From: Candidatus Iainarchaeum sp.
Lineage (GTDB): Archaea > Iainarchaeota > Iainarchaeia > Iainarchaeales > JAAZKV01
Assembly: GCA_026397015.1 (NCBI GenBank)
Contig: JAPLVR010000006.1
Span: 1-64,000, forward strand
Length of the DNA stretch: 64,000 bases
Direction of reading: 5' to 3'
The position numbers were made by a program, and so were the translations under genes. The notes beneath the pieces are model-generated. The model did no database searches. It had not been told where the DNA came from and saw nothing but the letters and a program-made list of their open reading frames with translations. Each line of letters opens with the position of its first letter. The stretch's first letter is position 1. Below are positions 24,915 to 43,470 of this stretch, one piece after another.

Positions 24915-25162
24915 TTTTTTCACCTTTTCCTTTTTAAATTCCAATTTTTTTTATTTTATTTTACCTTATTCTATTTTAATTTTTCTTTTTTTAATTTACT
25001 TCTATTTTGCTTTTATTCTGATTTTTTCTTTCCTTATCTTACTTTTATTTTACTTTCTCTCTTCTTAATTTATTTTTATTTTAATTTCGTTTTAATTTTT
25101 TTTATTTTTCTCTTACCTCACTTTTATTTTGCTTTTTTGTTTTTTCCACTCTTGCTCGAGTT
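24915..25162. repeat. Low-complexity T-rich spacer (A-rich on the operon's sense strand)
   Basis: About 250 nt of TTTTA/TTTTC runs, nearly G-free on the + strand. Confidence 0.8.
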
Positions 25163-25789: not shown

Positions 25790-25950
25790 TTCTCTCCTTT
25801 TAATTTTCACAGTATTAATTTCATTTTCATTCTTGATTTTTTTTATTTCGCCCATTTTTTCATCATTTTTATTTTTTTCTCATTCTTACTTTCTTCTCAT
25901 TCTCATTTTTTTATCATTTTTATTTTTTTCATGCCGCCAATCAAAATAAA
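25790..25950. repeat. Low-complexity T-rich spacer with short duplicated unit
   Basis: ATCATTTTTATTTTTT occurs twice (near 25862 and 25913). Confidence 0.7.
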
Positions 25951-26749: not shown

Positions 26750-27466
26750 TTATTTCATCAACTGCTTTACTTCCTGCGAATTCAGATTCCTGAAACCATT
26801 CTCATCAATAACAGCAAATTCCAGCCTTTCCGATCCCATCTTTTCCTTTTCCGGAAGGCTTTTTTCAATCGCCCTATAAACCAACGAAACCGCCTTTTCC
26901 AGCGGCAACCCGTCCTTGTATTCTTTTTCCAAAAAATGCATCGCTTTTTCCTTGTTTCTTCCGATTGCTATCGCCTTGTACTGCGCCAACGCACCGCTCG
27001 GCTCCGTTTCAAACAATTTTGCGCCGGTTTCATCAACGCCCGCAACAATAAAAGCAACTCCAAAAGGTCTGAGGCCGCCGTACTGCGTAAAAGCCTGCTT
27101 TGTTTCTGCAATCTCCTTCGCCATTACATTCACCTGAATTTTTTCGCCAAAAACCATTCTATTGTCCTGCGCCTGCCTTCTCGCGATTCCTACAAGCCTT
27201 CTCGCATCCCCCACAAGGCCTGCGGAAACGACTCCAATATTTTCATCAATTTTAAATATTTTTTCAACCGAATCGGAAACCATTATTTCGCTTTTTATCA
27301 TTTTATCGGCGCCAAGAAGTATTCCGTCCTTGTAAATTATTCCCGCGCCGGTCGTTCCCTGCTCCACAATTTTTGAAGCGTACTCCACCTGGTAAAGCCT
27401 CCCGTCGGGGGAGAACATTGTGGGAACCTTGTCATATGCCGGAACCTTTGATACTTGAGGATACAT
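26750..27466 (-). CDS. psmA: Proteasome subunit alpha
   Basis: YD...[31 protein letters not shown]. Confidence 0.96.
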
Positions 27467-27588
27467 AAAAATCAACTCTCAAAAAGGAGCAAAATCTTCC
27501 TTTCCCTTTCTTCCTTGTCCAACAAATCTATTAAAAGAGAATCTTTTTAAAGGTTGTTAAAACTGCCAAAACAACCACAAATTTGGAA

Positions 27589-29589
27589 CTATTGCCAGCT
27601 TAAAGTAGGGTATTCCCCTAACCAAACCCAGTTACCGTCATCCCAAGCCGGCGAACCCGTGTAAACGCCGTAACCGCTTGAGTAAAAGTCGGAAGCTTCG
27701 ACTGCATGTGTGCAGTTCGCATCGCCGCTGTGATAGCACGCGGTTGCGCTGTCGGACAGGTTGGAATCCAGCCAGTAAAGATTAAGCACTGACGCAGGAT
27801 CGTTATTGCCAACAACCCCCTCCGAATAGACGCCTCCTCCGTTAATCGTGCTGACAGAAAAAGAATTTTTTACGACCGAATCCCCATTGGTCCCAACTAT
27901 GCCTCCCGTATAACCACAACAACCCCCAGCGTTTATTGTTCCCGTGTTATATGAATTCACAATATAAGAAGGGCCATTATAACCAAACCCGTCCCATCCT
28001 ACCATGTTCAGCCCGGCTATCCCCCCGGTACGGACTCCTCCGGTTATGGTTCCGGTATTATAAGAATTCACCACCAAAGAGTCGGAGTTGAACCCTACTA
28101 TTCCCCCCACACTATCATCCTCCGGGCCGAGTGAGGTTATATTCCCCGCATTGTAAGAACCTTCCACGACCGACAAATATTCGTTTGACCCCGCCATTCC
28201 CCCGACCCATGCATACCCACTTACGGTTCCAGTATTATAAGAATTCACAACCGAAGAAGAATAATTCCACCCTGTTATTCCCCCGGCACAGCTCTCCTCG
28301 CCGCCACCGGCTGCAGTTACGGTTCCAGTATTATAAGAATTCACAACCGAAGAGTAATCGGCCTTTCCAACTATTCCCCCAATATGATAGTATCCGGTTA
28401 TGCTTGAGTTTTCCATCCCCAGATCCTTTACTTCTGAATGGTCAATCCGCCCAAACAAACCAACATAAGTTGTACTGGGACGGTAAATGTACAAGTCATT
28501 TATGGAGTAGTTCCTTCCATCAAATGTGCCGCTATATGGAGGCGTCACCACCCAAGTGCTTTCACAATCGTACTCGCAAGACCAACTGTTATCGCAATTC
28601 GGATTCGGATTTTCGCAATAACCCGCTTTGCCAATCGGCGCAAATCCCAAGTACTGCTCAAAAGTTTCGCTTTCCTCATCTTCATCCATATTCCAATTCA
28701 CTGTGTCGGAACAATCAATATCCTGCGCAAGCGCATAATTCGCATCCAAATCCAAACTCATATTTTGCAATTCAACACAACTTGACAAAAGGAACGGATG
28801 CGCATAACTGCCGTCCTGTAAAATAGAAAAATTCACATCCCAAGGACCGCCGTTATTACTACCAGCCCAATTACTATTCCCATCAACACAATTCACATCC
28901 CAAGAGTAAACTCCCTCCCCAATCGGAACAAAATTTTTATCGAAAGAGCCCGAATTGCCTGACTGGTCAAAACTGGTGCCAATAATCAAATTACAATTTG
29001 AAACCGCAACATTATCGCTTGCGGTGTAAGTAAAAGTAACAAAACCATCCTCATCAACGGTTCCGCTTAAAGGAGAAACCAAAGCAACACTCGGAGGAGT
29101 CGTATCACCCGGAACATACACCTGAACAGGAACATCAGGGGTACAACTCATAACAAACTCGGAAGGACCAACAGTATTTTGAACACCATATTTGTTTTTG
29201 TAAGTAATCTTCACGGAATAAGTCCGCGAACCACCAACACAACCAGACAGATTAGAAACAGTAACCGTTTGATCATCGCCCCCGGAAATCTTGGCGGAAT
29301 CAACATTCAAATCCACGCCATCAACATTAATCCCAGTGACAGTGACCTCTTCAAGCCCAGAATTTTTAAACTTAAAAATCGCATCACCATTCGAATCAGC
29401 ACCTGCATCAACAATCGCAAGACCCTGCGAAGACCAAAACAAATCAGCCCTGCCCTTATTAATGCCCGGGGTAGAATCAACAAAATCAGAAGCAAGAACA
29501 ACAACAACCAAACCAATAACAACAATAATCGCCAACAAAACAACATACTCAATAGTGCCCTGCGCAGATAGTTTAGAATGGGTTTGCAT
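27589..29589 (-). CDS. Class III signal peptide (pilin-like) GLUG-repeat surface protein, paralogue 1, with Ig-like insert
   Basis: SAQGTIEYVVLLAIIVVIGLVVV; DGSYAHPF..C.ELQ, GTFDG.NY.I..LYI, repeated (V/A)GGIxG...NSYNTG units, C-terminal YPTLSWQ; TATA TTTATATA about 23 nt upstream. Confidence 0.85.
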   Translation of the reverse strand: MQTHSKLSAQGTIEYVVLLAIIVVIGLVVVVLASDFVDSTPGINKGRADLFWSSQGLAIVDAGADSNGDAIFKFKNSGLEEVTVTGINVDGVDLNVDSAKISGGDDQTVTVSNLSGCVGGSRTYSVKITYKNKYGVQNTVGPSEFVMSCTPDVPVQVYVPGDTTPPSVALVSPLSGTVDEDGFVTFTYTASDNVAVSNCNLIIGTSFDQSGNSGSFDKNFVPIGEGVYSWDVNCVDGNSNWAGSNNGGPWDVNFSILQDGSYAHPFLLSSCVELQNMSLDLDANYALAQDIDCSDTVNWNMDEDEESETFEQYLGFAPIGKAGYCENPNPNCDNSWSCEYDCESTWVVTPPYSGTFDGRNYSINDLYIYRPSTTYVGLFGRIDHSEVKDLGMENSSITGYYHIGGIVGKADYSSVVNSYNTGTVTAAGGGEESCAGGITGWNYSSSVVNSYNTGTVSGYAWVGGMAGSNEYLSVVEGSYNAGNITSLGPEDDSVGGIVGFNSDSLVVNSYNTGTITGGVRTGGIAGLNMVGWDGFGYNGPSYIVNSYNTGTINAGGCCGYTGGIVGTNGDSVVKNSFSVSTINGGGVYSEGVVGNNDPASVLNLYWLDSNLSDSATACYHSGDANCTHAVEASDFYSSGYGVYTGSPAWDDGNWVWLGEYPTLSWQ
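28221..28353. repeat. 37-bp exact direct repeat within GLUG repeats
   Basis: TTACGGTTCCAGTATTATAAGAATTCACAACCGAAGA at 28221-28257 and 28317-28353. Confidence 0.9.
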
Positions 29590-29628
29590 AACGAAGAATA
29601 GCGCTGAACTGTATATAAACTTTTTTAA

Positions 29629-29979
29629 CTAACTGATTTTGCCAACTTCTTTCAGTGTCCTCATCGTTCCGGAAACGGCAATCGTGTTAAGTATGACCTT
29701 CTTGTTCCTAATCTTGCGGATGAATGCGAGACCCGCGATTAATTCCGTTTCTTTTCCGCGCCTGCATTTCAAAATCGCCTTGTTTTCCCTGTAAAGCACC
29801 AGTTTCGGGCTGATTTCCGCCAAGCCCTTCGAGCCGAAAAAGGAAAGCATTTCAATCCAGAAGCCGAAATAAAAATCCTTTTCATTTACCGCCGCGTTAA
29901 GCACTTCAAGAAGAACATACCTTTTCCTTTCCCGCTTCGACAGGGGAACAATCGCCTTCTTTTTCTTTTCTATTTTCAT
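29629..29979 (-). CDS. rnp2: RNase P protein component 2 (Pop5/Rpp14)
   Basis: KRERKRYV, FFGSKG, AILKCRR, VSGTMRTL. Confidence 0.9.
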   Translation of the reverse strand: MKIEKKKKAIVPLSKRERKRYVLLEVLNAAVNEKDFYFGFWIEMLSFFGSKGLAEISPKLVLYRENKAILKCRRGKETELIAGLAFIRKIRNKKVILNTIAVSGTMRTLKEVGKIS

Positions 29980-30530
29980 TTAATTACCCCGAATACTTCC
30001 TTCATTCTGTTTCTATCGGCGCCAAGGATTATTGCGATTGCTTCGCGCATCTTTTCCGGGCGCAAATACAGCGGCTCTTTTGCCCCCGACGCGACAACGA
30101 ATTTCGCTTTCTTTTTTTTGCAGTAAAAGGCGATTTCCGAATAGTTCTTCCACATCTGGAACCGCTCAAAGGAATTTTTGTCCAGGAGCTCGGCAAACAT
30201 GAGCACGGTCACGATTTCGGCTTCCGCCAATTTTTTTGCCAAACCCAGATCAAAAAATTGCTTCGTGCCGGAAGGCTGGAGAAGAAAATCAACTTTTGCT
30301 TTTACGGCGAACTCGTTCGCCTTTACGCTTCCGCCGAGAACAGCCTTTTTTTTTGAAGAAAGCTTTTGAATGTTTTGAGTTGATTCAGAAACAAGGTAGC
30401 AGGGAATCATTTCCGCTTTTTTTACTTTTTGTTCCTGCGCTTCGTTTTCCACAAGAACAATGAGTTTCTCTTTGAAATAGGAACCTATCTGCAGCAGCTC
30501 TTTGAGCGGCTGGAAATACACTATATCCAT
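29976..30530 (-). CDS. rnp3: RNase P protein component 3 (Rpp30), divergent
   Basis: GGSVKANEFAV..KVDFL, VVASGAKEPLYLRP; between rpl15e and rnp2. Confidence 0.8.
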   Translation of the reverse strand: MDIVYFQPLKELLQIGSYFKEKLIVLVENEAQEQKVKKAEMIPCYLVSESTQNIQKLSSKKKAVLGGSVKANEFAVKAKVDFLLQPSGTKQFFDLGLAKKLAEAEIVTVLMFAELLDKNSFERFQMWKNYSEIAFYCKKKKAKFVVASGAKEPLYLRPEKMREAIAIILGADRNRMKEVFGVIK

Positions 30531-30554
30531 AAATTAAATGCGCGACCAAATTTT

Positions 30555-31148
30555 TTAGCCGTGAGTATGATCCATCGCCTGTTTTCTGTGCCTTTTTCTC
30601 GTGTTAGCAAGGTTCGCGCGCTTGTTTACGCGGCCGAAAAATGTTTTCCCTCTTTCCGCCCTTCCCTGTTGCCCGTGGTTAATCCATTTCAAATTCTTGT
30701 CCGCCAAAACACTTGGCGCATCCCTGTCGGCAAGAACGACTTCATAATAATGCTTCGTTCCATCTTCCGCAATTTTGTAAGAACCCAAAACTTCCGCGTT
30801 CTCAAATTTTTTTGACGCTCTCTCCTCCGCAATCGCCTGAACGCTTTTCCTTCTGGACAATGTTGCCTGCCCCTGTCTCTTTGGCCTTCTCTTATTCTTC
30901 GGCCTGTGATGAGTTCCCGTTCCTTTTCTGACCCTCACGCGCGCAACAAAAACTCCCTGCTTCGCCTTGTAACCGATGCTCCTTGCCGCGGGAATATTTG
31001 TGGGGCCCCCAAGCTTTACAATAGCCTTGTCCTCGTTTCTGTATTCAAGGGTTCGCTGCTTCATCATGCCCGCATAATTGTAATCCCTGTCTTTCTGGCC
31101 CTTCCATTCTCTCTGGAAATTCGCCCTTATGTACTTCCATGCGCCCAT
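30555..31148 (-). CDS. rpl15e: 50S ribosomal protein L15e
   Basis: MGAWKYI, ARSIGYKAKQG, RVRVRKG, IAEERA, YYEVVL, RGKT. Confidence 0.96.
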   Translation of the reverse strand: MGAWKYIRANFQREWKGQKDRDYNYAGMMKQRTLEYRNEDKAIVKLGGPTNIPAARSIGYKAKQGVFVARVRVRKGTGTHHRPKNKRRPKRQGQATLSRRKSVQAIAEERASKKFENAEVLGSYKIAEDGTKHYYEVVLADRDAPSVLADKNLKWINHGQQGRAERGKTFFGRVNKRANLANTRKRHRKQAMDHTHG

Positions 31149-31264
31149 AAAAAACACTTCCAAATAAAAAAACCCAACTAACTAAATGCCCACCAGTTAC
31201 GCCAAATAAACTTTCGAATCAAAGAAGTTCATAAAAAAGATTTTATAAAGCTAACTAAGGCGGT

Positions 31265-31561
31265 TTAGCGGCTCCTTCCGCGCGGAGGCGTCTTTCTTCT
31301 TGTCAAAGCAGGATTGTTGCGCGGAACATTTCCCTGCCTTGAAATTCTCTTCGCGCCCGTATCAAAAAATCCGCCTTTTCGCGGGTAAACCTTTCTGCCA
31401 TTCGGCAAGTGCTCTACCAGATAAGTGGAAGCGCCTGCTGATTTATTCGCCAGCCTTAACACCCTTTTGAATGTAGTACTAACAATTGTATCTCCGCCGG
31501 TTTTCCTCGGCGCCGGCCCCTGCCCCCAAAAAGGCTCCGGTCTTTTTGCAGGTTTTCTCAT
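31265..31561 (-). CDS. Hypothetical Arg/Pro-rich small protein
   Basis: Fills the gap; GGTGTG SD-like element before TTG start; no known domain. Confidence 0.45.
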   Translation of the reverse strand: MRKPAKRPEPFWGQGPAPRKTGGDTIVSTTFKRVLRLANKSAGASTYLVEHLPNGRKVYPRKGGFFDTGAKRISRQGNVPRNNPALTRRKTPPRGRSR

Positions 31562-31611
31562 TCAACACACCTTTACATATTTCTTAAAGGTTTTACTATT
31601 TAAATGTTAGC

Positions 31612-32592
31612 ATGGCAAAAAAAGAAAAGGAGCCGGCTGGGCAAAAAAAATGCGACCGGTGCGGGGCAAAAGCGGCAATAACTCTCGCCTACGGTCCGCA
31701 CCATTTCTGCGAAAAACATTTCACCGATTTTTTTGAAAAAAGATTCAGAAAAACGGCAAGAAAATACGGGCTCATTAGGAACGGCGAAAAAATACTTGTT
31801 GCGCTGAGCGGAGGAAAAGATTCAACGCTTCTTCTTCACCTGCTGAAAAAGTTTTATTCGCGAAACCACAAAATCGAAGCGCTGATAATCGACGAAGGAA
31901 TAAGCGGATACAGGGATGAGGCGATAAAAATCGCGGTAAAAAACTGCAAAAAATTGGGGGTCAAACCGAAAATAGTTTCGTTCAAAAAAGAATTTGGAGT
32001 TACAAACGACAAAATAATGCCGCTGATTTTCAAGAACAGCAAACTCGGGGGCACATGCGCCTTCTGCGGAACGATGAGAAGAAACCTGATGAACAGGGGG
32101 GCGAAAAGGCTTGGCGCGGATAAGCTTGCAACGGGGCATAACCTTGATGACGAGGCGCAAAGCATTTTGATGAATATCTTCAACAACGATTTTGAGAGGT
32201 TCAGGAGGACTGGCGCAACAGCAGGAGTGATGGAACACAACGGCTTTGTGAAAAGGATAAAGCCGTTCTACGAAACGCCTGAAGACGAGATACTTGCTTA
32301 TTGTTCGTTCAGGGGAATCGAACATTTTTCGGGCGACTGCTGCCCCTACAGCTGGACAGCAAAAAGAAACGAATACAGAAAAATAATCGATGACTTGGAA
32401 AAAAAATTCCCGAATACAAAATTTTCGCTGCTCCGCTTTTATGAAAATTTGAAGCCTTTGCTCGCCCAAAAAAAAGGCGAAAAGAAGGCGGCGAAAAAGG
32501 CGCTTGGAAAATGCGAAAAATGCGGCGAACCCACCGAACACGAATTGTGCATGGCGTGCAAACAGGTCAAAAAAATTATTGATTTGATTTAA
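31612..32592 (+). CDS. tRNA 2-thiolation protein TtuA/Ncs6 family (TIGR00269-like)
   Basis: N-terminal CxxC..CxxH, SGGKDS PP-loop, CAFCG, TGHNLDD, CPY, C-terminal CxxC..CxxC. Confidence 0.92.
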   Translation: MAKKEKEPAGQKKCDRCGAKAAITLAYGPHHFCEKHFTDFFEKRFRKTARKYGLIRNGEKILVALSGGKDSTLLLHLLKKFYSRNHKIEALIIDEGISGYRDEAIKIAVKNCKKLGVKPKIVSFKKEFGVTNDKIMPLIFKNSKLGGTCAFCGTMRRNLMNRGAKRLGADKLATGHNLDDEAQSILMNIFNNDFERFRRTGATAGVMEHNGFVKRIKPFYETPEDEILAYCSFRGIEHFSGDCCPYSWTAKRNEYRKIIDDLEKKFPNTKFSLLRFYENLKPLLAQKKGEKKAAKKALGKCEKCGEPTEHELCMACKQVKKIIDLI

Positions 32593-32639
32593 GCCGGGCA
32601 AAATTAAAAATTACTGATTTGATTTAGTTCGGCACGAAA

Positions 32640-34481
32640 TTATTTCTTGCCCAGCAGAGTTTGGATGTAACCCGCAAATTCGTTTTCAAACTTTTCAAGC
32701 CCTTCTATTTTTGCGTCAAAAATCAAAACTCTTTCTTTGATTTGCCTTTCAGCATCAACGTTTTTCTGGTCCAGCGCATTTATCGAATCGTTCATTCTCA
32801 CAAGCGTTTCTTCCATGTTTTTCAGGAACTGTTTCTTGAACTCGTCAAGGATTTCTATCTTCTGCTTTAGAGTGTCAAGAGAAAGCTGTTTCTCCGCCGC
32901 CTTTATTTTGTTTAATTCCACTTCCATTTCCTGAATCAAGCCTTCCGCTTTTTGAATCGCGAGCTCGTCAATCCTCTGCTCGGCTTCCTGCAGCATTCCT
33001 TCCGCAATATTTTTTTCAAGTTCAAGCGTTTTCGCAATCCTATCGTCCATTTCCTTCAGGTGCGCATCCGCCGCGTCAATGAATTCCTGCGTCTGCGATT
33101 TTATTCTTATTAACTCCGAATTTGACTCTGAAATAACCTGCACTTTTGTCCTTCGCACCTCGTCGATTGCGGCCGTGAGCTGTGCAAGCGCATCATCCCG
33201 CTCCCGCCTTGTTTTTTCAAGAGTAACGAGGTTTGATTTGAGCTCGTTGTTGTACTGCCTCAGCTCCGCTATTTTCGAATCGATTATGAAGGCGATTTCC
33301 CTCAATTTTTCTTCAAGCGCTTCGGTGTTGCTGGAAATAATCAATTCTTTCTGGGAGTCGAGCAGAATCTTGAATTTTTCTGTTTCCTTTCTAACTGCCG
33401 CATCAACCTTTTGGTCCACAACAGCATCAACATCGCTCTTTAATTTTTTCATTTCAGAAAGTTTTGCGTTTATCGCAATAACTATCCCTTTCTTCCAAAG
33501 CTGTTCAATGTCATTGTCGGAAACGGCGTCAAGGGAACTCGGCTTTCTTTGCGGCACAACCTTTTTAATTTCTTGAACCGGGATCTCCTGCGCGAAACTT
33601 TTTTGCAAATTTTTTGCTTCAACTTGCTGCACACTTTTTTGCCCGGCTTTTTTTGAGGTTTCAGAAGCAACTTCGCTAATTATTTTATTCACAATAAGAT
33701 TTTCAGATTCCTCCTGTGTTGGAGCCTCTTCCTGTTTTTCTTCAACCGATTTTGCGGTTGAAAATAAGGGCCTGACAACCTGCCTTGAACTTGCTGCCTT
33801 CAAAGCGTCTTCCTTTTCCTGCCGCTGGCGCTGAGGACTTTTCGAAAGCTTTCTCAGCGCATTAAGCGCATCGCTTTCCTCTTCAGCTTCCGATTCTGTT
33901 TGGTTTCCACTTCCACCCATTCCTTTTGTTCCCGCGCCTACCGCATTTTTTGCGGAATTCACTTCTGCGTTAAGGGAGTCCGCCTGCGCGTCAAGGGATT
34001 CCTCGGTTTCCGGCGCGTCCTCCTCTATTTTAATTCCAGTGTCGATTTCTGAAGGTTCTATTTCATTGTCGTCTTCATCCTCGACGCCTGAAATGTTTTC
34101 AACGGAACCGTTTTTTTGCTGTGCAGATGATTGGCCCTGTGAAACTTGCGAAAGGTTTTGCTGGCTCTTGGTAAGCTGTTCTGTTATTTCATCGAAAACG
34201 TCCTTTGAACCTTCTTCTTTTGAAGAGCCGTATTGAGAAGGCTGGGAAATCTGCCGCGAATAAGAAGGCTGCGCATTCGATTGTATCGAAACATATTCCT
34301 CAATCTTCGGCTGGCCAAAAGAACTCGCGGCAGTTGAACCGCTTCTGGCTTCCATCGTAAGTTCAAGGGCTTCTTTTTTGTCAACACCGACGTCAGCCAG
34401 GTTTGACACTATTTCTTCGTCAGAAACTCCGAGGGCAATGAGCTTTTTTATGGAGTCAAGTATGAGTTCGCGCTTGTCCAT
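32640..34481 (-). CDS. Large protein: small helical N-domain, acidic disordered linker, ~290-aa C-terminal coiled coil
   Basis: Heptad-rich E/K/L C-terminal half; S/Q/E-rich middle. Confidence 0.7.
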   Translation of the reverse strand: MDKRELILDSIKKLIALGVSDEEIVSNLADVGVDKKEALELTMEARSGSTAASSFGQPKIEEYVSIQSNAQPSYSRQISQPSQYGSSKEEGSKDVFDEITEQLTKSQQNLSQVSQGQSSAQQKNGSVENISGVEDEDDNEIEPSEIDTGIKIEEDAPETEESLDAQADSLNAEVNSAKNAVGAGTKGMGGSGNQTESEAEEESDALNALRKLSKSPQRQRQEKEDALKAASSRQVVRPLFSTAKSVEEKQEEAPTQEESENLIVNKIISEVASETSKKAGQKSVQQVEAKNLQKSFAQEIPVQEIKKVVPQRKPSSLDAVSDNDIEQLWKKGIVIAINAKLSEMKKLKSDVDAVVDQKVDAAVRKETEKFKILLDSQKELIISSNTEALEEKLREIAFIIDSKIAELRQYNNELKSNLVTLEKTRRERDDALAQLTAAIDEVRRTKVQVISESNSELIRIKSQTQEFIDAADAHLKEMDDRIAKTLELEKNIAEGMLQEAEQRIDELAIQKAEGLIQEMEVELNKIKAAEKQLSLDTLKQKIEILDEFKKQFLKNMEETLVRMNDSINALDQKNVDAERQIKERVLIFDAKIEGLEKFENEFAGYIQTLLGKK

Positions 34482-34557
34482 CCAATATCAAACTATAAAT
34501 AGTTCTTATTGAATAAAAAGCTGTTGGTGGGGTTTAATTCGGCTTTAAGAGACCTGT

Positions 34558-34791
34558 TTAAGGAGAAATCATTACTATGCTGTCGCCGCGAACCATAATC
34601 TTGCCGTAATTTGTTTTCAGCTGGCCGTCAACTATCTGGGAAGCGTTTTCAAGGACTATATTCATGTGAATGTCGAAAGCTTTGAGCTTTCCCCTCACCT
34701 GTGTGCTTCCCTTCATTACAACAAGCACTTCTTTTCCGAGAGAATCGTTCAACAAATCGAACGGCCTGTTGCTCATTTTTTCATTCATCAT
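34558..34791 (-). CDS. Sm-like archaeal protein (SmAP1/Lsm)
   Basis: RPFDLL..SLGK.VLV, GKLKAFDIHMNIVL, VRGDSIVMISP. Confidence 0.95.
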   Translation of the reverse strand: MMNEKMSNRPFDLLNDSLGKEVLVVMKGSTQVRGKLKAFDIHMNIVLENASQIVDGQLKTNYGKIMVRGDSIVMISP

Positions 34792-35579
34792 TTCTTCCAC
34801 CAGAAAAATAATCTTGCAAGCAAACCTTTTTTAATGAACCCTTCCTTCTGCGCATCTTCCTGCACTTTCAACCCTGTTAGGCGCGAAGCGATTCGCTGGA
34901 ACTCAATTGCAGCCGGAGAATTCGGAATACGCGCAATTACCGGCGCAGCCTTTTCCTGAGAAAATGTTCTTCTTACTTCAGGGTCGTCTGGAACGGAACC
35001 GTAAACAGGGGTTTCCAAAAAATTCGCAATATCCTGCTGAGGAATTTCGCCCTTCTCCTTCCGCACAAAATTAATTATAACGCCCGTTACTTTCGCCCCG
35101 AGGCGCTGGGCAATCTGCCGGGTTTTCTCCGCATCCGCCAAAGCGGGCGGATTCGGCATCGTAACAAGAAGCATTTCCTGCGAAGCGCTTATCGCGCTGA
35201 TTACCTGCTTTTCAATTCCTGCCGCCGCATCCAGCAAAATATAATCGTAATCTTCCTCAATTTCTTTTATCACCCCGGCTAATCTTTCGCTGTCCAACCG
35301 CTTGTAATTTTCCAGGCTCATTCCGGACGGAACCAAATGAATGCCGCCCGGCCCGTCATAAATGGAATCCCTTATCTGCGCCTCGCCCAAAAGAACATCG
35401 TGCAAAGTTATCGGCGAACTCTGCATTCCCAAAATGAGCGAAAGGTTCGCCATCGCGACGTCCGCGTCGATTAACAAAACTTTTTTTCCTAATTTAGAAA
35501 GTGCTATTCCCAAATTTGCCGTAAGAGTTGTTTTTCCTGTTCCGCCCTTTCCGGAAGCAATTACCATTATGCGCGCCAT
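34788..35579 (-). CDS. minD: MinD-family ATPase
   Basis: SGKGGTGKTT deviant Walker A, DADVAMANL, C-terminal amphipathic KGLLARLF. Confidence 0.92.
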   Translation of the reverse strand: MARIMVIASGKGGTGKTTLTANLGIALSKLGKKVLLIDADVAMANLSLILGMQSSPITLHDVLLGEAQIRDSIYDGPGGIHLVPSGMSLENYKRLDSERLAGVIKEIEEDYDYILLDAAAGIEKQVISAISASQEMLLVTMPNPPALADAEKTRQIAQRLGAKVTGVIINFVRKEKGEIPQQDIANFLETPVYGSVPDDPEVRRTFSQEKAAPVIARIPNSPAAIEFQRIASRLTGLKVQEDAQKEGFIKKGLLARLFFWWKK

Positions 35580-35750
35580 TCAATCCCACCGATTTATAAC
35601 CTATAAAAGCTGTAAGAGTATAAAACTGTTTCCCTTAATATAAAATAAAAAAAATACCATGCTGTCCCGAAATTGAATATTTGTCACTAAGCAAAAACAA
35701 AAAACTATCAAAAATCAAAAAAATTTAAAAAAAATGAGGCGCTTTTTGAA

Positions 35751-38201
35751 TTAGTCAGTCTGCCACTTCAAAATGGGGTAATCGTTGCCCTGCTCGGTCC
35801 AGACGTTGGTAAAGTCCCAGCCGGAGTGGAACGGTTCTTTTTCTTCGGAATAAACCGAACCCTTGAAATAATCGGCGCCGGAACTTTCATAAGTCCTGTT
35901 GCAGTAAAAAACAGTGTCCATCGCGGTGCCGTTATTTCCGCTTCCGCTTGAATCATTCAGGTCGCCGTCCAATTGCCAAAATCCCAAAGCTCCGGAAACT
36001 GTGCCGCCGCCGAAGAGAGTGGCGACTTCGTCGGCACTTAAATTACGGTCCCAGATGCCGACCTCATCTATTCTCCCCTTCCACTGCCTCTCCGCACCGG
36101 TATTATACCCTGTTCCAAGTGCAAGGTTCGGAAGGCTGGTTGGCCACAGAGTGCTTTTCGCGGCGTTGAAAATCAGCGAATTATCCAGGTAGCCTTTGAC
36201 ATTGCTCGCGTTTTTGTCCCAAACAAATACCACATGATACCATCTGTTGGCATCCATCGGGTTCCCGAGGCCGGTATTCATATGTTGGTTTGCAGTAAAG
36301 TCTCCGGTCCCGATAACAACGCCGAATGATCTATCGCCCGCTTCCTCAAATCTTATGCCGTTGTTTCCGCCATTGTAATTGGTTGTAAGAGGGTTTCTGT
36401 AATTTGCAACTTCGTCAGCGTACATCCAGAAGCTTATTGTACCCTTGTCAGGGAAGTTGGCTGAAATGTTCCCGATGCTTATGTAAGTGGTTCCGCTAAT
36501 GAATCTGTACGCTGAATTGGGGTTGCTGAGCCTGTCATCAACAAAGTTCTGGTCAACAGTATATTGGTTGTTAGTGTAGTATGAGTTGGATGCCGCACTG
36601 CTACAGTTGCCGAAACCACGCGCATTGGTTCCGCTCATCGCACTCGTCGTAAAACTGTTGCTTGTATTGTTATGCACCCCCGCAAAACCGCCTATGTTTG
36701 ATGCGCCGGTTCCGTTCACGGTTCCCGTCGAATACGCTCTCGAAGCGGTTCCAGAACCTTCAATAACCCCTGCAAGCCCCCCAACATAGTTGCTGGTGCC
36801 GGTTACATTCCCGGTCGCATAAGAATCATAAATCGAGGTCCCGCTCCCGCTGTTCCCAACCAGACCGCCGATACGCTGAGAACCTGAAACATTCCCTCCC
36901 GCAAAGGACTCGGAAACAGGACAGCCTGCCCCCGTTAGCCCCCCAACACGCTCGCCGCCAGAAACACTTGCAAGAGAATACGATTCCGAAATGCTCCCAC
37001 AGACGCCCGAAAGCCCTCCGACATAATTGCTAACCCCTCTGACAGTGCCCGTAGTGTACGAACCGGTGATAGCTGCCCCTTGGCCCACCAATCCGCCAAC
37101 AATATCCTTGCCAGTCACATTGATATCCGCCAAACCCACATCCCTTATCGTTACGGACGAATTCATGTAGCCAAGCAGCCCGACATAATTCTCGCTCGGC
37201 CGATTTATGTACAAATTACTTATCGTGTGGTTTTGGCCGTTGAAAGAGCCGCTGAAGTCAGTATGCAACCAAGTGCCTCCGCAGCCGTCGGATTCGCGGG
37301 TACAACTCTCCGCATCTGTGCATCCTGTATTCAACCAGTTCTGTTCATATCCGCAATATGGTTCGGTTATCCATGTGCACTCATCATTTTCGCAGTCCTC
37401 CTGGCTACCGTACTCTCCACGCCACCCCCCCTCCTCACCATACATATAGAAGCACACTGGAAGGCTTTCTGTAATCCACTCCAGCCCGCAGCCTCCCGCT
37501 TCGCGTTCGCATGATGCCTCGTCACCGCACCCTCCCACCGTGCAACTAGCCGGGTCGCCTATCGGGTTGAAACCCGCGCCGCCATTCCAAGTATTGGTAT
37601 CAGAACAATCGATATTCTGTGCGAGCGCGTAATTCGCATCCAAATCATTGTTCATGTCCTGCAATTCATTACAGTCGGACAAAAGGAACGGGTGCGCGTA
37701 ACTACCATCCTCATATACTGAAGGTATAACATCAGTGGTACAACTCACGACCAGCTCCCCGCCGGAAACAATATGCAACAAACCATCCGCATCCCTATAA
37801 ACAACTCTTACCAAATAAGTCCTTGAACCGCCAACACAAGGAGACAAATCACCAACCGAAACACTCGCCTCCCCCCCCCCCAAAACCCTCGAAAAAGAAA
37901 CATTCACATCAACACCATCAACACTCAAACCAACAACATTAACATCCCCCACACCATTATTCCTAAACCTAAACAACGCATCCCCATTAGAATCAGCAAC
38001 AGACCCAACAATCCCCACACTCTGAAAAGCCCAAAACAAATCAGACTTATTCTTCGCAATACTAGGCGCAGACTCGATAAAAGAAGCCACCAAACTAACA
38101 ACAACCAAACCAATAACAACAATAATTGCGAGCAAAACAATATACTCAATAGTACCCTGCGCCTTTGGAGATTTAATGCGCGCCAAAAAATAGTTCCACA
38201 T
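35751..38201 (-). CDS. Class III signal peptide GLUG-repeat surface protein, paralogue 2, with Cys-rich insert and LamG domain
   Basis: KAQGTIEYIVLLAII; GLUG units; LamG motifs TISFW, WYHVVFVWD, KGRIDEVGIWDRNLS; C-terminal YPILKWQ; TATA TTTATATA about 21 nt upstream. Confidence 0.87.
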   Translation of the reverse strand: MWNYFLARIKSPKAQGTIEYIVLLAIIVVIGLVVVSLVASFIESAPSIAKNKSDLFWAFQSVGIVGSVADSNGDALFRFRNNGVGDVNVVGLSVDGVDVNVSFSRVLGGGEASVSVGDLSPCVGGSRTYLVRVVYRDADGLLHIVSGGELVVSCTTDVIPSVYEDGSYAHPFLLSDCNELQDMNNDLDANYALAQNIDCSDTNTWNGGAGFNPIGDPASCTVGGCGDEASCEREAGGCGLEWITESLPVCFYMYGEEGGWRGEYGSQEDCENDECTWITEPYCGYEQNWLNTGCTDAESCTRESDGCGGTWLHTDFSGSFNGQNHTISNLYINRPSENYVGLLGYMNSSVTIRDVGLADINVTGKDIVGGLVGQGAAITGSYTTGTVRGVSNYVGGLSGVCGSISESYSLASVSGGERVGGLTGAGCPVSESFAGGNVSGSQRIGGLVGNSGSGTSIYDSYATGNVTGTSNYVGGLAGVIEGSGTASRAYSTGTVNGTGASNIGGFAGVHNNTSNSFTTSAMSGTNARGFGNCSSAASNSYYTNNQYTVDQNFVDDRLSNPNSAYRFISGTTYISIGNISANFPDKGTISFWMYADEVANYRNPLTTNYNGGNNGIRFEEAGDRSFGVVIGTGDFTANQHMNTGLGNPMDANRWYHVVFVWDKNASNVKGYLDNSLIFNAAKSTLWPTSLPNLALGTGYNTGAERQWKGRIDEVGIWDRNLSADEVATLFGGGTVSGALGFWQLDGDLNDSSGSGNNGTAMDTVFYCNRTYESSGADYFKGSVYSEEKEPFHSGWDFTNVWTEQGNDYPILKWQTD
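37871..37881 (-). repeat. G11 homopolymer in coding strand (LGGGE)
   Basis: 11 consecutive C on the + strand. Confidence 0.9.
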
Positions 38202-38265
38202 ACTCTAATATGCGCCTCGGCTATATAAATATTTTCCCAAAAATCAGCAGGGACAAAATGAGACC

Positions 38266-38727
38266 TTAAATTTTCAAATCGCCCAAGCCGTAAGATTCGA
38301 AAACGCCCGCTTCCTTTTTTTCCGCCTGGAAATTGTCGGAAAAAACCGCCGGAACCATTTTTGCCACGTCCTTCAAAGAAAGATTTGCGGGAAGCAGAAG
38401 CTCCTCGTCAAAAGCGGTAACCAAATCAATCTGCGACCGCGCCAATTCAACCGCCTGAAAGTAACCCTTTCCCTTTGCCCCGTTCAAAAAATATTTTAGA
38501 GCTTCTTTTCCCTTGAAGCCCGCCCCTACCGACAGGCATTCGGCAAAGCAGGCGTACATTTTTCCTTCCTTGAAAAACAAAACGCTCTCCTCTATGCAGG
38601 ACGCCTTAACTGTTTGTATCAGATAGCCGCTGAAACCGCCGTCAACCAGGCTTTTCGCAATCGTCTCAAAATCGAACGGAATCGTTCCCTTCAAAACAAC
38701 CTTTCCTGCGGGAAAATTCATTTGCAC
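38266..38727 (-). CDS. DUF2226-family protein
   Basis: MNFPAGKVV...GFSGYLI...EESVLFFKEG pattern. Confidence 0.65.
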   Translation of the reverse strand: MQMNFPAGKVVLKGTIPFDFETIAKSLVDGGFSGYLIQTVKASCIEESVLFFKEGKMYACFAECLSVGAGFKGKEALKYFLNGAKGKGYFQAVELARSQIDLVTAFDEELLLPANLSLKDVAKMVPAVFSDNFQAEKKEAGVFESYGLGDLKI

Positions 38728-38818
38728 ACCACAATTTTAAAAATCAAATCCTGAAAACAAAATTCAACCAAATTATTGCTCGCCCCTCAAATAAATTACT
38801 GCTCTCAATTCAAAAAAA

Positions 38819-39271
38819 TTACTGCTTGCCCTTCAAAAAAATAACTTTATCGGCCGTATTCTTCAAAGCAGCCGCACTCATCTTTTCGCCCATTATCGCA
38901 ATCGTTTCCTTTCCCCTGTTCTTTGCCTTTATTATCGCGGGCAAAAAATCGGAGTCGCGCGTCACAAAAACAATCGCATCAATCGAATCATTGAAAACAG
39001 TTTCAGTTGCATCACAAGCCATCGCAACATCAATATCCGTTGTTGAAACCAAAGGCTCGAAACCCTGATTCACAACAGCTTCTACCAGCTTTTCGGAAGC
39101 AAACTGATTCAAATAAACTTTTCCGACTTTCATCGAACCGAGCTTCTGGACCTCTTTCTTAATCAAGTCCAAATCGATGCCCAATTCTTTCCTCAAAATG
39201 TTCGGACCGTCAACGAAAACCGCCAAACGCTTCTCCTTCTGGCCGAAACGCTTCTTAAATCTCTCAAACAC
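38819..39271 (-). CDS. NYN-domain (PIN-like) protein, TIGR00288 family
   Basis: FVDGPNILRKE, TDIDVAMA, TRDSDFLP, LKNTAD; GTG start near 39271 (ORF open to 39370). Confidence 0.9.
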   Translation of the reverse strand: MFERFKKRFGQKEKRLAVFVDGPNILRKELGIDLDLIKKEVQKLGSMKVGKVYLNQFASEKLVEAVVNQGFEPLVSTTDIDVAMACDATETVFNDSIDAIVFVTRDSDFLPAIIKAKNRGKETIAIMGEKMSAAALKNTADKVIFLKGKQ

Positions 39272-39374
39272 AAAAACCACTTTCCACCGATTCCCGCCGA
39301 AACGGGAACAAAAATAAGTTAGCCTGAAAGGGTATAAAACTGTTTCTCTTGCTGAAAAAAAAGAACACAAAAAA

Positions 39375-41195
39375 TCATTCCACTTGCCAAGTCAATATTG
39401 GATAATTATCAACACGTGCTGTCCAGTTCTTATCTAAGCCGAAAGTCCAGTAAGGTACCACCGTATCATAAACATTATGGTCTTGAGAATAGAAAACAGT
39501 TTTATCCGCTTCATTATAAGTCACATTCCCGTCAGGGTTCCCTATCGCATTCCAATCCCCAGCACCAGTCCACCAGCCGCAATTGGAAACTGTTCCTTCT
39601 TTGAATCCGACTAGACCCCCAACATCAATAGTTCCAGATACAGCCCCTGTCGAATAAGAGTTAGAAACAGCACCCCCGGCCCAGCCGACTAGTCCCCCGA
39701 CATAATTAGTGCCAATTGTAATCCCCGTTGAATAAGAATTAGAAATCGACCCATCCCATTGACCTCCAACTAGCCCACCAACATCATAACCGCCAGTTAC
39801 ATTCCCTATTGAATAAGAATCAGAAATTGCCCCCCCTTCTTGGTCTCCGACTAGGCCCCCAACCTCATCAGAATCAGGAGTGCCAGTTACATTCCCTGTT
39901 GAATAAGAATTAGAAATTGCCCCACTATTTTTGAACCCGACTAGGCCCCCAAGAGAATCAGAAGTTCCATTTACGCTTCCTGTTGAATAAGAATCAGAAA
40001 TCGTTCCATATTGGTGTCCGGCTAGGCCACCGACATCATAACCAGAACCATTTACGCTTCCTGTTGAATAAGAAGCAGAAACCGTTCCCTCTTGGGTTCC
40101 GACAAGGCCCCCGACTTCATTAACACCATTTACAGCCCCTGTTGAATAAGAATTAGAAATCGCCACCCCTGGATATTGGAGTCCTACCAGGCCTCCGACT
40201 TCATTAACACCATTTACAGCCCCTGTTGAGTGAGAGTTAGAAATCGACCCATACTGCCATCCAACGAGACCCCCGATACCATCATTAGAACTGGTTACGC
40301 TTCCTGTTGAATAAGAATCAGAAATTGCCCCCCCTTCTTGGTCTCCGACTAGGCCCCCAACCCCTTCACCAGAACTATTTATGCTTCCCGCCGAATAAGA
40401 ACCAGAAATCACCCCATATTGGTATCCGACGAGACCCCCGACATAGTTACCGCTGCCAGTTACACTCCCTGTTGAATAAGAACCAGAAACCGTTCCAGAC
40501 TCTTGATATCCGATTATTCCCCCAACCTCCGAGTTTCCGGTTATATTCGAGTTTTCCATTCCCAAATCCTTTACTTCCGAACCATTAACATACCCGAATA
40601 AGCCAACATTGTTCGTGTTTGGCCGGTAAATGTACAAATTGCTTACCGAGTAGTTCCCTCCGTCAAGGCTGCCGGTAAACTCATTCATAGCATCCCCAAT
40701 CGGCACAAAGCCAGATTCAGGCGGTGGCGAGAAGTCCAAGTGCCGCCCAAAAACTCCGCTGCCCTCATCTTCTTGTAGGTTCCAATTAATGGTATTAAAA
40801 CAATTAATGTCCTGCGCGAGCGCGTAGTTCGCATCCAAATCATTGCTCATACCCTGCAACTCATTACAATCGGACAAAAGGAACGGATGCGCATAACTAC
40901 CGTCCTCAAATGGTGGAGCAGGAACAACAGGAACATCAGGCGTACAATTGACAACAAACTCGGAGGGGCCGACAGTATGCTGGATACCATACTTATCCTT
41001 GTAAGTAATCTTCACGGAATAAGTCCGCGAACCACCAACACAACCAGACAAATCGGAAACTATAATCGTTCTATCATCGCCTCCGGAAATACTGGCGGAA
41101 TCGAAATTCAAATCCACACCATCAACATTAATCCCAGTAACAGTAACATTCTCAAACGTTTCTTTTTTAAAAACAACCCAATTCATTTTATTCAA
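39375..41195 (-). CDS. GLUG-repeat surface-protein paralogue 3, lacking the class III signal peptide (5'-truncated)
   Basis: Homology to paralogue 1 begins at about VTVTGINVDG; more than ten VGGLVG...SNSYSTG units; C-terminal YPILTWQ; no QGTIEY/hydrophobic helix upstream. Confidence 0.75.
   Translation of the reverse strand: MNKMNWVVFKKETFENVTVTGINVDGVDLNFDSASISGGDDRTIIVSDLSGCVGGSRTYSVKITYKDKYGIQHTVGPSEFVVNCTPDVPVVPAPPFEDGSYAHPFLLSDCNELQGMSNDLDANYALAQDINCFNTINWNLQEDEGSGVFGRHLDFSPPPESGFVPIGDAMNEFTGSLDGGNYSVSNLYIYRPNTNNVGLFGYVNGSEVKDLGMENSNITGNSEVGGIIGYQESGTVSGSYSTGSVTGSGNYVGGLVGYQYGVISGSYSAGSINSSGEGVGGLVGDQEGGAISDSYSTGSVTSSNDGIGGLVGWQYGSISNSHSTGAVNGVNEVGGLVGLQYPGVAISNSYSTGAVNGVNEVGGLVGTQEGTVSASYSTGSVNGSGYDVGGLAGHQYGTISDSYSTGSVNGTSDSLGGLVGFKNSGAISNSYSTGNVTGTPDSDEVGGLVGDQEGGAISDSYSIGNVTGGYDVGGLVGGQWDGSISNSYSTGITIGTNYVGGLVGWAGGAVSNSYSTGAVSGTIDVGGLVGFKEGTVSNCGWWTGAGDWNAIGNPDGNVTYNEADKTVFYSQDHNVYDTVVPYWTFGLDKNWTARVDNYPILTWQVE
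39809..40362. repeat. Tandem ~81-90 bp GLUG coding repeats, including a 56-bp exact duplicate
   Basis: 39809-39864 identical to 40307-40362 (encodes VGGLVGDQEGGAISDSYS). Confidence 0.9.
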
Positions 41196-41253
41196 ACAGT
41201 TTTAAGCCTAAATTAATTTAATTTCGCTTGAGAAAGGAAAAATAGGTGGTTTT

Positions 41254-41646
41254 ATGGTTGATGAGAAGAAATTTGAGGGCGCCGGCTCGTTAAAGCCGGG
41301 CAGCCACGTTTTAATAGACGGCGAAGTTTGCCAGGTTAAGAGCGTTGAAAAATCAAAGCCGGGAAAGCACGGCGCCGCGAAGGTAAGGGTAGTCGCATTT
41401 AACATTTTTACAGGGCAAAAAAGAGGGTTGCTCAAGGGAACTGATGCGGAAGTAGAAATACCGATTATTCCAAAGGGAACGGCGCACGTAGTCGCAATAA
41501 TGGGCGACGTTATCCAGATAATGGACATTGAAAATTACGAAACCTACAACGCGCCGAAACCCGCAGAAATTCCCGGATTGGCTTCGGGCGTAACCGTGGA
41601 ATACCAAAAATACGGCGAAAATGTGAAAATAACGAGAAAGAAATAA
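41254..41646 (+). CDS. eif5a: Translation factor aIF5A
   Basis: KSKPGKHGAAK hypusine-site motif; GGTGG SD. Confidence 0.96.
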   Translation: MVDEKKFEGAGSLKPGSHVLIDGEVCQVKSVEKSKPGKHGAAKVRVVAFNIFTGQKRGLLKGTDAEVEIPIIPKGTAHVVAIMGDVIQIMDIENYETYNAPKPAEIPGLASGVTVEYQKYGENVKITRKK

Positions 41647-41721
41647 TTCACATAAACCGTTCGAACAAAAATTCGGCTTGAAAGCGCAAGCCTAATTAAA
41701 CCAATCTTTAATACTTCATTC

Positions 41722-43185: not shown

Positions 43186-43470
43186 ATGGAAAACGGGCAG
43201 GGCGCAATAGAATACCTTTTGCTGCTCGCAGCAGGGGTTGTTGTAGTCGCAGTGGTTATTTCTTTCCTTATAATGCTTATCAACCAGACACAGGAAGCGG
43301 GGTGCGAAGGGCTGAAAGGAATGCTGTGCGACAGCCTCGACTCAAATATTGAGGTTTGCGCATGCTACAACGGAAATGAAGCCTATTTTGGCAGCCCCGC
43401 GGAAGGAAAAAGCTACTGTTGCAGCCAGAAATGCCCGAAGCTCAGGGCCAAATGGAACTGCGGGCAGTGA
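43186..43470 (+). CDS. Small class III signal peptide (type IV pilin-like) Cys-rich protein
   Basis: NGQGAIEYLLLLAAGVVVVAVVI; 8 Cys in the short mature domain. Confidence 0.8.
   Translation: MENGQGAIEYLLLLAAGVVVVAVVISFLIMLINQTQEAGCEGLKGMLCDSLDSNIEVCACYNGNEAYFGSPAEGKSYCCSQKCPKLRAKWNCGQ

Follow-up and report, generated by a model that had tools for sequence, protein, structure and literature searches.

Three genes with exchanged passenger modules behind a pilin-type handle in a Candidatus Iainarchaeum genome

Modular pilins and the three genes of the window

Bacterial modular pilins have been catalogued in more than 1200 proteins and 264 architectures, with Streptococcus sanguinis PilB and PilC carrying a vWA module and a ConA-like lectin, respectively, and the catalogue of Raynaud et al. 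2021 includes pilins joined to PF13385 (LamG_3) and pilins joined to IPR011493, there assigned to M26 (10.1101/2021.01.27.428410). In archaea, substrate-binding and adhesin-like proteins with class III signals, mostly solute-binding, are described from Sulfolobales and Methanobacteriati by Sivabalasarma and Albers 2026, and a passage of the same paper states that type IV filaments (T4F) are less widespread in DPANN (PMC13705601). The window analysed here, the first 64 kb of contig 1 (JAPLVR010000006.1, 64,000 nucleotides) of a Candidatus Iainarchaeum genome (GCA_026397015.1, hereafter G000; 898,628 bp in six contigs, rated 85% complete), contains three genes, g1, g2 and g3, to which the modular pilins are the closest kind known. 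As in the bacterial architectures of the catalogue, an N-terminal pilin module is followed by a short linker and a putatively adhesive module, and many architectures stand behind one handle (10.1101/2021.01.27.428410). In contrast, the handle found here is archaeal, with an A|QGTIEY motif and an AapB-like head instead of the IPR012902 type, it occurs in expanded numbers, about 1-21 per genome of about 1 Mb, and its passengers vary at syntenic sites of congeners.

With a probability of about 0.6, g1, g2 and g3 belong, as ordinary members, to a large family of archaeal modular type IV pilins that is found throughout the lineage and owes its diversity to evolution, not to a dedicated switching machine at this locus. 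An initial annotation had regarded them as a surface-diversification system in which recombination between copies produces variant pilus-borne adhesins. This proposal was half right, as g1-g3 are candidate pilin-based adhesins whose modules have been exchanged during evolution, but a system acting now is not demonstrated, and ongoing recombination among the three copies is unsupported by the PHI test, the homogeneity of g1 and g3, the neighbouring genes and independent contigs. The three paralogous open reading frames (ORFs) were confirmed on the minus strand together with their translations, and alignment recovers the common scaffold (DGSYAHPFLLS.C.ELQ, the GLUG repeats and the YP.L.WQ end), but g3 as assembled is without the first half of the N-domain. 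Their parts are the following.

27589-29589, minus strand: g1, 666 aa, with pilin module (residues 1-153), Ig-like insert (161-254) and cap plus predicted GLUG beta-helix (259-666), from Pfam and alignment
29131-29589, minus strand: g1 pilin module, with leader MQTHSKLS, AQGTIEY, hydrophobic helix, beta-rich head and two conserved Cys
28828-29109, minus strand: g1 Ig-like insert, Big_7-like, about 94 aa, in the slot between pilin module and cap
28552-28623, minus strand: g1 short Cys-rich loop, residues 323-346 (24 aa), after GFAPIG in the alignment
35751-38201, minus strand: g2, 816 aa, with pilin module (1-158), cap (from 165) and Cys-rich insert (216-314)
within 35751-38201, minus strand: g2 distal parts, namely predicted GLUG helix (315-569), LamG (570-727) and C-terminal piece (728-816)
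37260-37556, minus strand: g2 Cys-rich insert, 99 aa, with repeated C-x-C-x-W units, at or near the breakpoint between young and old parts of g2
36021-36494, minus strand: g2 Laminin_G_3 (concanavalin-A-like lectin), PF13385, 73.1 bits, E=3.6e-20
39375-41195, minus strand: g3 as assembled, 606 aa, TTG start, with the second half of a pilin module (14-88) and cap plus long predicted GLUG helix (98-606)
39685-40489, minus strand: g3 GLUG array, 81-nt unit in 9.8 copies (Tandem Repeats Finder, TRF), with direct-repeat families D1, D4 and D5

The Pfam gathering cut-offs are 20.5 bits for Glug, 23.7 for Class_IIIsignal and 24.1 for Big_7. Glug (PF07581) exceeds its cut-off in all three proteins, with 46.6 bits in g1, 22.5 in g2 and 135.2 in g3; IPR011493 we take to be the GLUG motif entry. 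The distribution of the optional parts is as first described, the Ig-like insert being confined to g1 and LamG to g2, and the slot after GF.PIG holding the short Cys-rich loop in g1, the 99-aa insert in g2 and nothing in g3. Scanned alone, the Ig-like insert of g1 reaches 23.2 bits with Big_7 (E=1.1e-4), slightly below the cut-off, and its homologue in a relative (L083) reaches 28.8 bits. The Ig module precedes GLUG in g1, SBBP in three genes and a Kazal-like part in one. The cap and first GLUG rungs of g3 match the N-region of an IgA1 protease (6XJA, E=1.4e-5, chain residues 162-335), namely the GLUG/M26_N region of the Streptococcus pneumoniae enzyme (6XJA, 6XJB, 7JGJ). In contrast to the protease, no peptidase family, the M26 catalytic domain included, was found in g1-g3 (Pfam, E<=0.01), and the region is a stand-alone passenger behind the pilin.

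The pilin module, its family and its passengers

The N-domain is homologous to an archaeal pilin over its helix and its head. A profile of 41 N-domains from G000 and its relatives matches PDB 8Q30_A (AapB) with E=1.4e-7, the alignment spanning profile positions 10-133 and chain residues 5-137 of 141; the second match of the profile, the 'pilin' 6W8U, has E=0.22, and g1 alone reaches 8Q30 with E=8.6e-4. The chain 8Q30_A is deposited as a DUF4352 protein and is part of a filament (139 chains in 3 entries), AapB being the subunit of the Aap (adhesive) pilus of Sulfolobus acidocaldarius in the paper that contains the code 8Q30 (PMC11178815). Despite this homology, AapB is a simple pilin of 141 residues that, as the major subunit, builds the entire filament (PMC11178815), whereas the proteins described here are extended by 450-650 residues and probably do not serve as major subunits. 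Two stand-alone pilins, of 171 aa in G000 and 175 aa in a congener (G001, 88% complete, used for the comparison of synteny), align to the module over their full length, and both stop at the second conserved Cys, the point where the passengers of the long proteins start. The 171-aa pilin adjoins the type IV pilus (T4P) locus on contig 3. The class III motif (short basic leader, K/S-x-A|QGTIEY, Glu at +5) occurs in g1 and g2 and in 10 ORFs genome-wide, and is absent from g3 as assembled; the position of cleavage within A|QGTIEY is presumably that of the Methanococcus EppA substrates. In the ESM Atlas the N-domain adjoins archaeal clusters of 150-160 aa, with PF04021 in 25-45% of their members. 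In addition, G000 encodes two A24 prepilin peptidases (PF01478), five T2SSE-type ATPases (PF00437) and six matches to the T2SSF platform family (PF00482), the latter in three loci with paired platform genes, all over the cut-off. The AapB homology over helix and head, the stand-alone pilins and the machinery thus identify the N-domain as a whole pilin module. By their sequences, proteins of the g1 and g2 type fit the definition of a modular pilin, since the module is followed by a domain that is not specific to pilus biology (Glug, Laminin_G_3, Big_7-like). The class III anchoring proposed initially would therefore apply to g1 and g2, which have a complete archaeal type IV pilin module, but not to g3 as assembled, which has no signal peptide. 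At 2 kb from g3, a 94-aa ORF (43186-43470, plus strand) carries the class III signal motif MENGQGAIEYLLLLAAGVVVV and is a Flp/Epd-like pilin candidate, with no Pfam match at 1e-5.

In the proposed mechanism, the product would be a pre-pilin composed of a basic leader, A|QGTIEY, the hydrophobic alpha-1 helix and a beta-sandwich head of about 110 aa with a C-terminal Cys pair. One of the two A24 prepilin peptidases would cut the leader, and one of the three ATPase/platform sets would insert the module into a type IV filament, most likely as a tip or minor subunit. Behind the pilin module the GLUG beta-helix would be grafted as a stalk offering optional slots, with the Ig domain before the cap, the Cys-rich knots in the loop that follows the first rung and the LamG lectin at the far end, and these optional parts may present binding surfaces for adhesion and, possibly, for the recognition of a host. 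On evolutionary time scales, diversity would arise by duplication, by whole-module exchange at the linkers, by short conversion tracts in the pilin part and by gain or loss of GLUG repeats.

A different display is rather unlikely, in which the class III signal would serve export and membrane anchoring only and the proteins would form single helix-anchored stalks or short pseudopilus- or bindosome-like assemblies instead of long pili, much as the class-III-signal sugar-binding proteins of Sulfolobales do. It is favoured by the scattering of the genes among housekeeping genes, outside pilus operons, and by the 450-650-aa passengers, too bulky for a filament body, a consideration that parallels the tip-location argument of Raynaud et al. 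(10.1101/2021.01.27.428410). The archaeal class-III-signal binding proteins similarly combine conserved N-termini with diverse C-termini, co-localise with other genes and use one common machinery; they share with g1 and g2 the conserved class III N-terminus, the diverse C-terminal binding parts and a location of the genes apart from the assembly machinery, but differ in that GLUG has 0 occurrences in the available text of the paper (PMC13705601). However, the N-domain goes beyond a signal and a helix, as it comprises the whole head of a pilin homologous to one that forms filaments, and the same module is common to stand-alone pilins, one of them beside a pilus locus. Full-text searches returned no paper joining GLUG, archaea and pilin, and the papers on Iainarchae pili include none on such proteins by title or abstract.

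The initial view of the three genes as a system is not borne out at the level of the locus. At least 13 class-III-signal genes exist in G000 (the 10 motif ORFs, g3, the gene c5b on contig 5 and an N-terminus cut off by the beginning of that contig), g1-g3 being three of them, and behind the common handle the genes of this set carry GLUG, LamG, Ig with an SBBP propeller, MopE/Cys-rich modules and parts without family. The incomplete member lies at positions 1-144 of contig 5 (L009/L067) with 81% identity to g1 residues 8-55, and its remainder is absent from the assembly. The pilin module was found in 23 of the 24 same-family genomes searched (1-21 matches each) and in 4 of 16 genomes of other families within the order; the cap-GLUG passenger occurs in 13 of 15 same-family genomes and was not found in G001, itself 88% complete. 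Against 1.84 billion representatives the module profile matches 2293 clusters (at 50% identity) with E<=1e-3 and 338 with E<=1e-30; in the best 150 of the 2293 clusters the module is N-terminal in 150/150, with protein lengths of 138-1122 aa. A Pfam scan (E<=1e-4) covered 29 of 39 relatives' proteins, the other 10 being G000 or G001 genes already scanned and short plain pilins, and gave the following passengers (n=29).

Glug: 8
LamG_3: 5
Lcl_C: 2
SBBP: 1
Kazal: 1
MopE: 1
InlB-type B-repeat only: 1
no Pfam match at 1e-4: 10

One relative (L089) matches Peptidase_M26_N. A further same-family genome has a tandem of three pilin-GLUG genes (G006, contig 1, about 788727-794815). An NCBIfam match to TafC was rejected at 24 bits against a cut-off of 410, NCBIfam being otherwise uninformative. 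An exact scan of JGI metagenome contigs with 57 nt of the shared pilin block R (described below) gave 0 matches, a protein-guided scan of metagenome contigs with g3 residues 14-265 returned a single distant relative at 37% identity, and viral contigs scanned with g2 yielded nothing.

The three genes form no operon or island, and their neighbours are housekeeping genes. In the conserved row of exosome, SBDS and proteasome-alpha genes followed by RNase P Pop5-Rpp30 and L15e (26750-29979), g1 lies between PsmA and Pop5. The gene for a MinD-type ATPase flanks g2 on one side, with ORF153 (no family) and an NYN gene on the other, while g3 is placed between the NYN gene and the divergently transcribed aIF5A. 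G001 is syntenic over the entire region, with housekeeping genes at 71-78% nucleotide identity. At the PsmA|x|Pop5 site of g1 it has a 489-aa pilin-Ig gene with a Cys-rich Kazal-like end and no GLUG, the Kazal likeness being by eye, with no Kazal Pfam match at E<=0.01. The g2 site is empty, about 100 nt separating the MinD gene and ORF153, and the NYN|x|aIF5A site of g3 holds a full-length pilin-Ig-SBBP gene that is split across two overlapping contig ends. Similarly c5b is absent from its G001 site, where 46 nt lie between the flanking genes. Because the syntenic sites of G001 have other passengers or none, the shuffling of passenger modules is well supported as an evolutionary statement. The end of G001 contig 2 (L068) and the start of its contig 1 (L066) overlap by about 127 near-identical bases inside the pilin-Ig-SBBP gene, and the family thus breaks assemblies in G001 too.

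Small archaea of the DPANN type are thought to depend on contact with other cells. With 2293 clusters at 50% identity and congeners that differ at the same sites, the modular-pilin family is a concrete candidate for such a contact apparatus, in which one handle with interchangeable GLUG, lectin, propeller, Kazal-like and Cys-rich heads would provide adhesins that can be tested.

Mosaic ancestry and the shared pilin block

The ancestry of the copies was compared through codons for the same residue, a near-neutral clock, counting those that differ over the total before and after the slot of the Cys-rich insert (Fisher test).

g1-g3: 16/64 before the slot (block R and cap), 8/25 after, p=0.6
g1-g2: 24/64 before, 19/25 after, p=0.0018
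g2-g3: 20/64 before, 18/25 after, p=0.0007

Overall, g1 and g3 differ in 24/89 same-residue codons (27%), homogeneously along the gene, and in the N-terminal half g1 and g2 differ in 7/41; in four orthologous housekeeping pairs of G000 and G001 the figure is 239/635 (38%). In a search with the g2 helix, other genera (47-56% identity, E from 1e-32 to 5e-27) outrank g3 (1e-23) and g1 (1e-16). The GC content at third codon positions (GC3) is 0.33-0.39 in the pilin modules and 0.48, 0.55 and 0.35 in the helices. This codon heterogeneity, together with the relatives of the helix and the GC3 values, indicates that g2 joins a young pilin and cap to an old helix, the two meeting in the slot of the Cys-rich insert or close to it. 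Judged by these sequence comparisons, g2 is the copy with clearly mixed ancestry.

In the initial annotation it was g3 that had patchy ancestry, with a segment resembling g2 followed by one resembling g1. The strings SDCNELQ.M.NDLDANY and EVKDLGMENS are present, but the patch disappears at synonymous sites. A max-chi-square scan of g1, g2 and g3 finds 21/31 informative sites in the patch against 53/194 elsewhere, a contrast reached by 7 of 1000 permutations; at codons that encode one residue in all three copies, however, g3 differs from g2 in 8/31 and from g1 in 9/31, so that the resemblance to g2 consists of amino-acid changes only and the max-chi-square signal was rejected as proof of a g2 patch. 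Polarising the cap substitutions by an outgroup was dropped, as the relatives are too diverged. Six full N-domains submitted to the PHI test showed no signal, the observed value being equalled or undercut in 1024 of 2000 permutations. The tests for mosaic ancestry thus reveal heterogeneity in g2, but g1 and g3 are homogeneous and PHI is flat.

The second half of the pilin module shows a different pattern. Contigs of four public runs (X1-X4, contigs only, X1 and X2 belonging to one study) were compared with the following two features.

40927-41158, minus strand: block R (second half of the pilin module of g3), 230/231 identical to contig 5 positions 3899-4134 (c5b)
41156-41160: disputed junction, where the window joins the 5' leader straight to block R and X1/X2 differ

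The block R region clusters by genome, g1, g3 and c5b being 84-100% identical mutually and two G001 SBBP genes 75-86% identical in the second half of the pilin module; against the positional orthologues the identity is 58% for g1 and 64% for g3, with the flanking housekeeping genes at 71-78%. A recent exchange between family members in this region is supported by these sequence identities. The exact 52-nt identity reported between g1 and g3 (29198-29249 = 40999-41050) was reproduced, and it is longer than expected: when the 35 mismatches of the 231-nt block were placed at random, a run of this length arose in 30-37 of 20000 trials. Block R ends sharply on both sides, and beyond it g3 and c5b resemble each other neither in their flanks nor in their passengers, c5b (contig 5, 2657-4134) continuing with a MopE-type Cys-rich motif and LRAYxFDGSxF repeats.

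Both genes are truncated at the same nucleotide. The homology of g3 to g1 begins at FENVTVTG (about 41156-41158), around residue 78 of g1, and about 75 residues are missing; upstream lie 58 bp and then the divergent aIF5A, and as assembled there is no TATA box, native start or signal peptide. The G001 gene next to aIF5A is full length with a TATA-like box, a start codon and a signal peptide, and g3 in the window keeps the distal 5' leader found in G001 and then jumps directly to the middle of the pilin module. In c5b a promoter-like box, an ATG and eight codons (MSQLFARA) are retained before an out-of-frame jump into block R.

Contigs of X1 and X2 are identical to the window, without any difference, across pieces of 7.3 and 2.6 kb; window parts without listed contig cover were excluded as evidence. 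At the truncation points these assemblies diverge from it. A 9820-nt aIF5A contig of X1/X2 (depth 21-23) bypasses block R at 41158 and continues for 130 other letters, 30 of which, as shown, resemble the 5' leader of the G001 orthologue, and an X2 contig links the upstream flank of c5b to a g1-like signal-peptide sequence. The X1/X2 contigs thus carry complete 5' ends at the two loci. Independent assemblies therefore do not support the truncations of g3 and c5b, which are either assembly errors or minority deletion variants; g3 is thus either misrepresented by the assembly or a deletion variant. The reading of g3 and c5b as silent cassettes was demoted to a minority rival after the contigs showed the full 5' ends. 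Because assembly is unreliable at the common pilin block, calls of pseudogenes or silent cassettes from metagenome-assembled genomes need read-level checks. Something real may nevertheless recur at the breakpoint, since the left flank of the window ends 130 nt before the end of a still-running k=31 contig, g3 and c5b have a common right-hand breakpoint, and in a third, g2-like copy (X1 and X3 contigs, loose end 37944) the upstream sequence is unrelated from almost the same codon.

It is very unlikely that the mosaic and truncation signals as a whole are a misassembly of a multi-copy family in a metagenome, with no biology behind them. This would account for the joins at 41158 and at contig-5 position 4134, both absent from the listed contigs of X1/X2, which continue otherwise, for the paralogue cut off at the beginning of contig 5 and for the two contigs of G001 that break within the same family, and of the words sampled from 39300-41700, X1 and X2 contain only 93%. 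However, contig record 3 ends at 29227, the start of the 52-nt shared block, and the contigs show both exits from block R (loose end 40928) and both alleles at 41016, so that the shared blocks are real repeats. Misassembly is further contradicted by the heterogeneity of g2, which lies within one contig of uniform identity, by the location of the G001 differences in long syntenic contigs, and by the 130-nt shortfall of the left flank, which is unusual for a scaffold join.

A deep 3.6-kb segment and the case for ongoing rearrangement

Several observations weigh against the reading of g1-g3 as ordinary members of a pilin family diversified in evolution. Sequence families are the only basis for assigning the beta-helix, the Ig fold and an exposed position of the inserts. 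Pfam PF04021 (Class_IIIsignal) stays below its cut-off of 23.7 throughout (18.7 in g2, 16.7-23.3 in the family), with no match in g1, and no type IV pilus gene is present among the 22 neighbouring ORFs scanned. The g3 protein as assembled could not be secreted, and the sharp ends of the 231-nt shared block hint at recent and possibly ongoing events. Finally, contigs over one segment are about 4.5-fold deeper than the flanks in X1 and X2.

36778-40440: high-depth segment, containing the N-terminal 475 residues of g2, ORF153, the NYN gene and g3 from about residue 254 to its end

In X1 the contigs 36778-39398 and 39389-39838 have depths of 101.7 and 103.8 against 22.2, 21.3 and 15 in the flanks; in X2 the corresponding values are 88.2 and 75.1 against 20.3, 22.8 and 17.6, depth being one figure per contig and a poor basis for ranking. 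In X3 the contigs of the segment exceed the flanks by a factor of about 1.6, and in X4 the factor is about 1. The simplest reading of the excess, an open lead and not a result, is amplification or excision by unequal recombination between g2 and g3 that would create an in-frame hybrid. The boundaries of the segment lie in homologous GLUG units of the two genes (36775-36835 with 40432-40492, 75% identity over 61 nt) in the same codon phase, and no second copy occurs in the assembly, nor a near-identical one in 37 other family genomes, where the best match is 78%. As to mobile-element hallmarks, ORF153 is without family and the matches of the NYN protein are confined to PHROGs of unknown function. 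The segment also contains, at 38763-38846 between ORF153 and the NYN gene end, 3.7 tandem copies of the 23-nt unit TTCAAAAAAATTACTGCTCGCCC.

An active variation at population level, in which ongoing recombination between paralogues would yield new adhesin alleles, the 3.6-kb unit would be amplified or excised with an in-frame g2-g3 hybrid, and mid-module deletion or conversion would silence copies or draw on 5'-truncated donors in the manner of Neisseria pilE/pilS, is unlikely. A rearrangement going on now, with the unit at 4-5 copies in a tandem array or circle, a hybrid of the g2 pilin, cap and Cys insert with the g3 helix, and recurrent mid-module breaks that switch off or convert genes, is equally doubtful. 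The depth excess over 36778-39838, the homologous and in-phase boundaries and the lack of a second copy elsewhere all suit this possibility, as do the truncation of g3 and c5b at one nucleotide with a 230/231 common block and the third g2-like copy of X1 and X3 with its unrelated upstream sequence at the same codon region. In the same direction point a low-depth contig (8-10) that joins g3-like block R to ends of a g1-like Ig insert (joints 29121>40914 and 28911>29071) and GLUG-array length variants in X3 and X4 contigs (a skip of 123 at 39913, a step back of 498 at 40306).

However, the predicted g2-to-g3 joint appears in no contig, among the joints listed, and in a protein-fragment search for a g2/g3 hybrid across g2 residues 380-560 no fragment was near-identical, the best reaching 54% identity. 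The joints were obtained at a likeness of 90, a level at which paralogues from other organisms can intrude, and the low-depth mosaic contig may be a further paralogue; the contigs of the four public runs contain no unambiguous three-copy chimera of the kind that the initial annotation had suggested looking for in reads. The single depth figure per contig, the full 5' ends of the X1/X2 contigs at the g3 and c5b loci and the negative PHI test likewise argue against active variation, and among the 150 N-domain matches listed (41 genomes) only g3 and c5b start beyond residue 9. Moreover, the three genes stand in direct orientation around essential genes, so that simple crossovers would delete housekeeping genes.

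Two known systems of pilin variation may be compared. In the pilin antigenic variation of Neisseria pilE/pilS, promoterless 5'-truncated donors stand beside an expressed copy. The genes described here similarly comprise several pilin-related copies, two of them without promoter and 5' part as assembled, and a near-identical 231-nt tract; in contrast, the conserved part is what they have in common and whole passengers differ, and the truncations are contradicted by independent contigs. The R64 PilV/Rci shufflon has a recombinase gene and inverted segments beside the pilin gene. No recombinase was found among the 22 neighbouring ORFs, which also speaks against active variation, and all three genes lie on the same strand, inverted repeats not having been searched, so that no shufflon-type arrangement was recognised. 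Read-level work has a modest chance of revealing ongoing rearrangement. If real, the amplified hybrid unit would be a rare direct view of adhesin rearrangement in progress in an uncultured archaeal population, and would represent a recombination-based strategy of surface variation in a DPANN archaeon.

Other features of the window lie outside the three genes. A scan for sigma-70 promoters and terminators found fewer sites than in shuffled sequences, with models that are not applicable to archaea. The Rrp4 gene is flanked by T-rich low-complexity direct repeats at 25017-25142 and 25799-25931 (family D3). A 613-aa protein (32640-34481, minus strand) has an acidic, Ser-Gln-rich low-complexity N-terminal half and a coiled-coil-like C-terminal half, with no family match; its gene adjoins that of the MinD/ParA-type ATPase (34788-35579, minus strand), and both are syntenic in G001. 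An intein containing a LAGLIDADG homing-endonuclease domain interrupts the MCM helicase gene (43829-47053, plus strand), and directly after the MCM gene lies a gene for a membrane protease of the presenilin/signal-peptide-peptidase type (PF06550; 47050-48057, plus strand).

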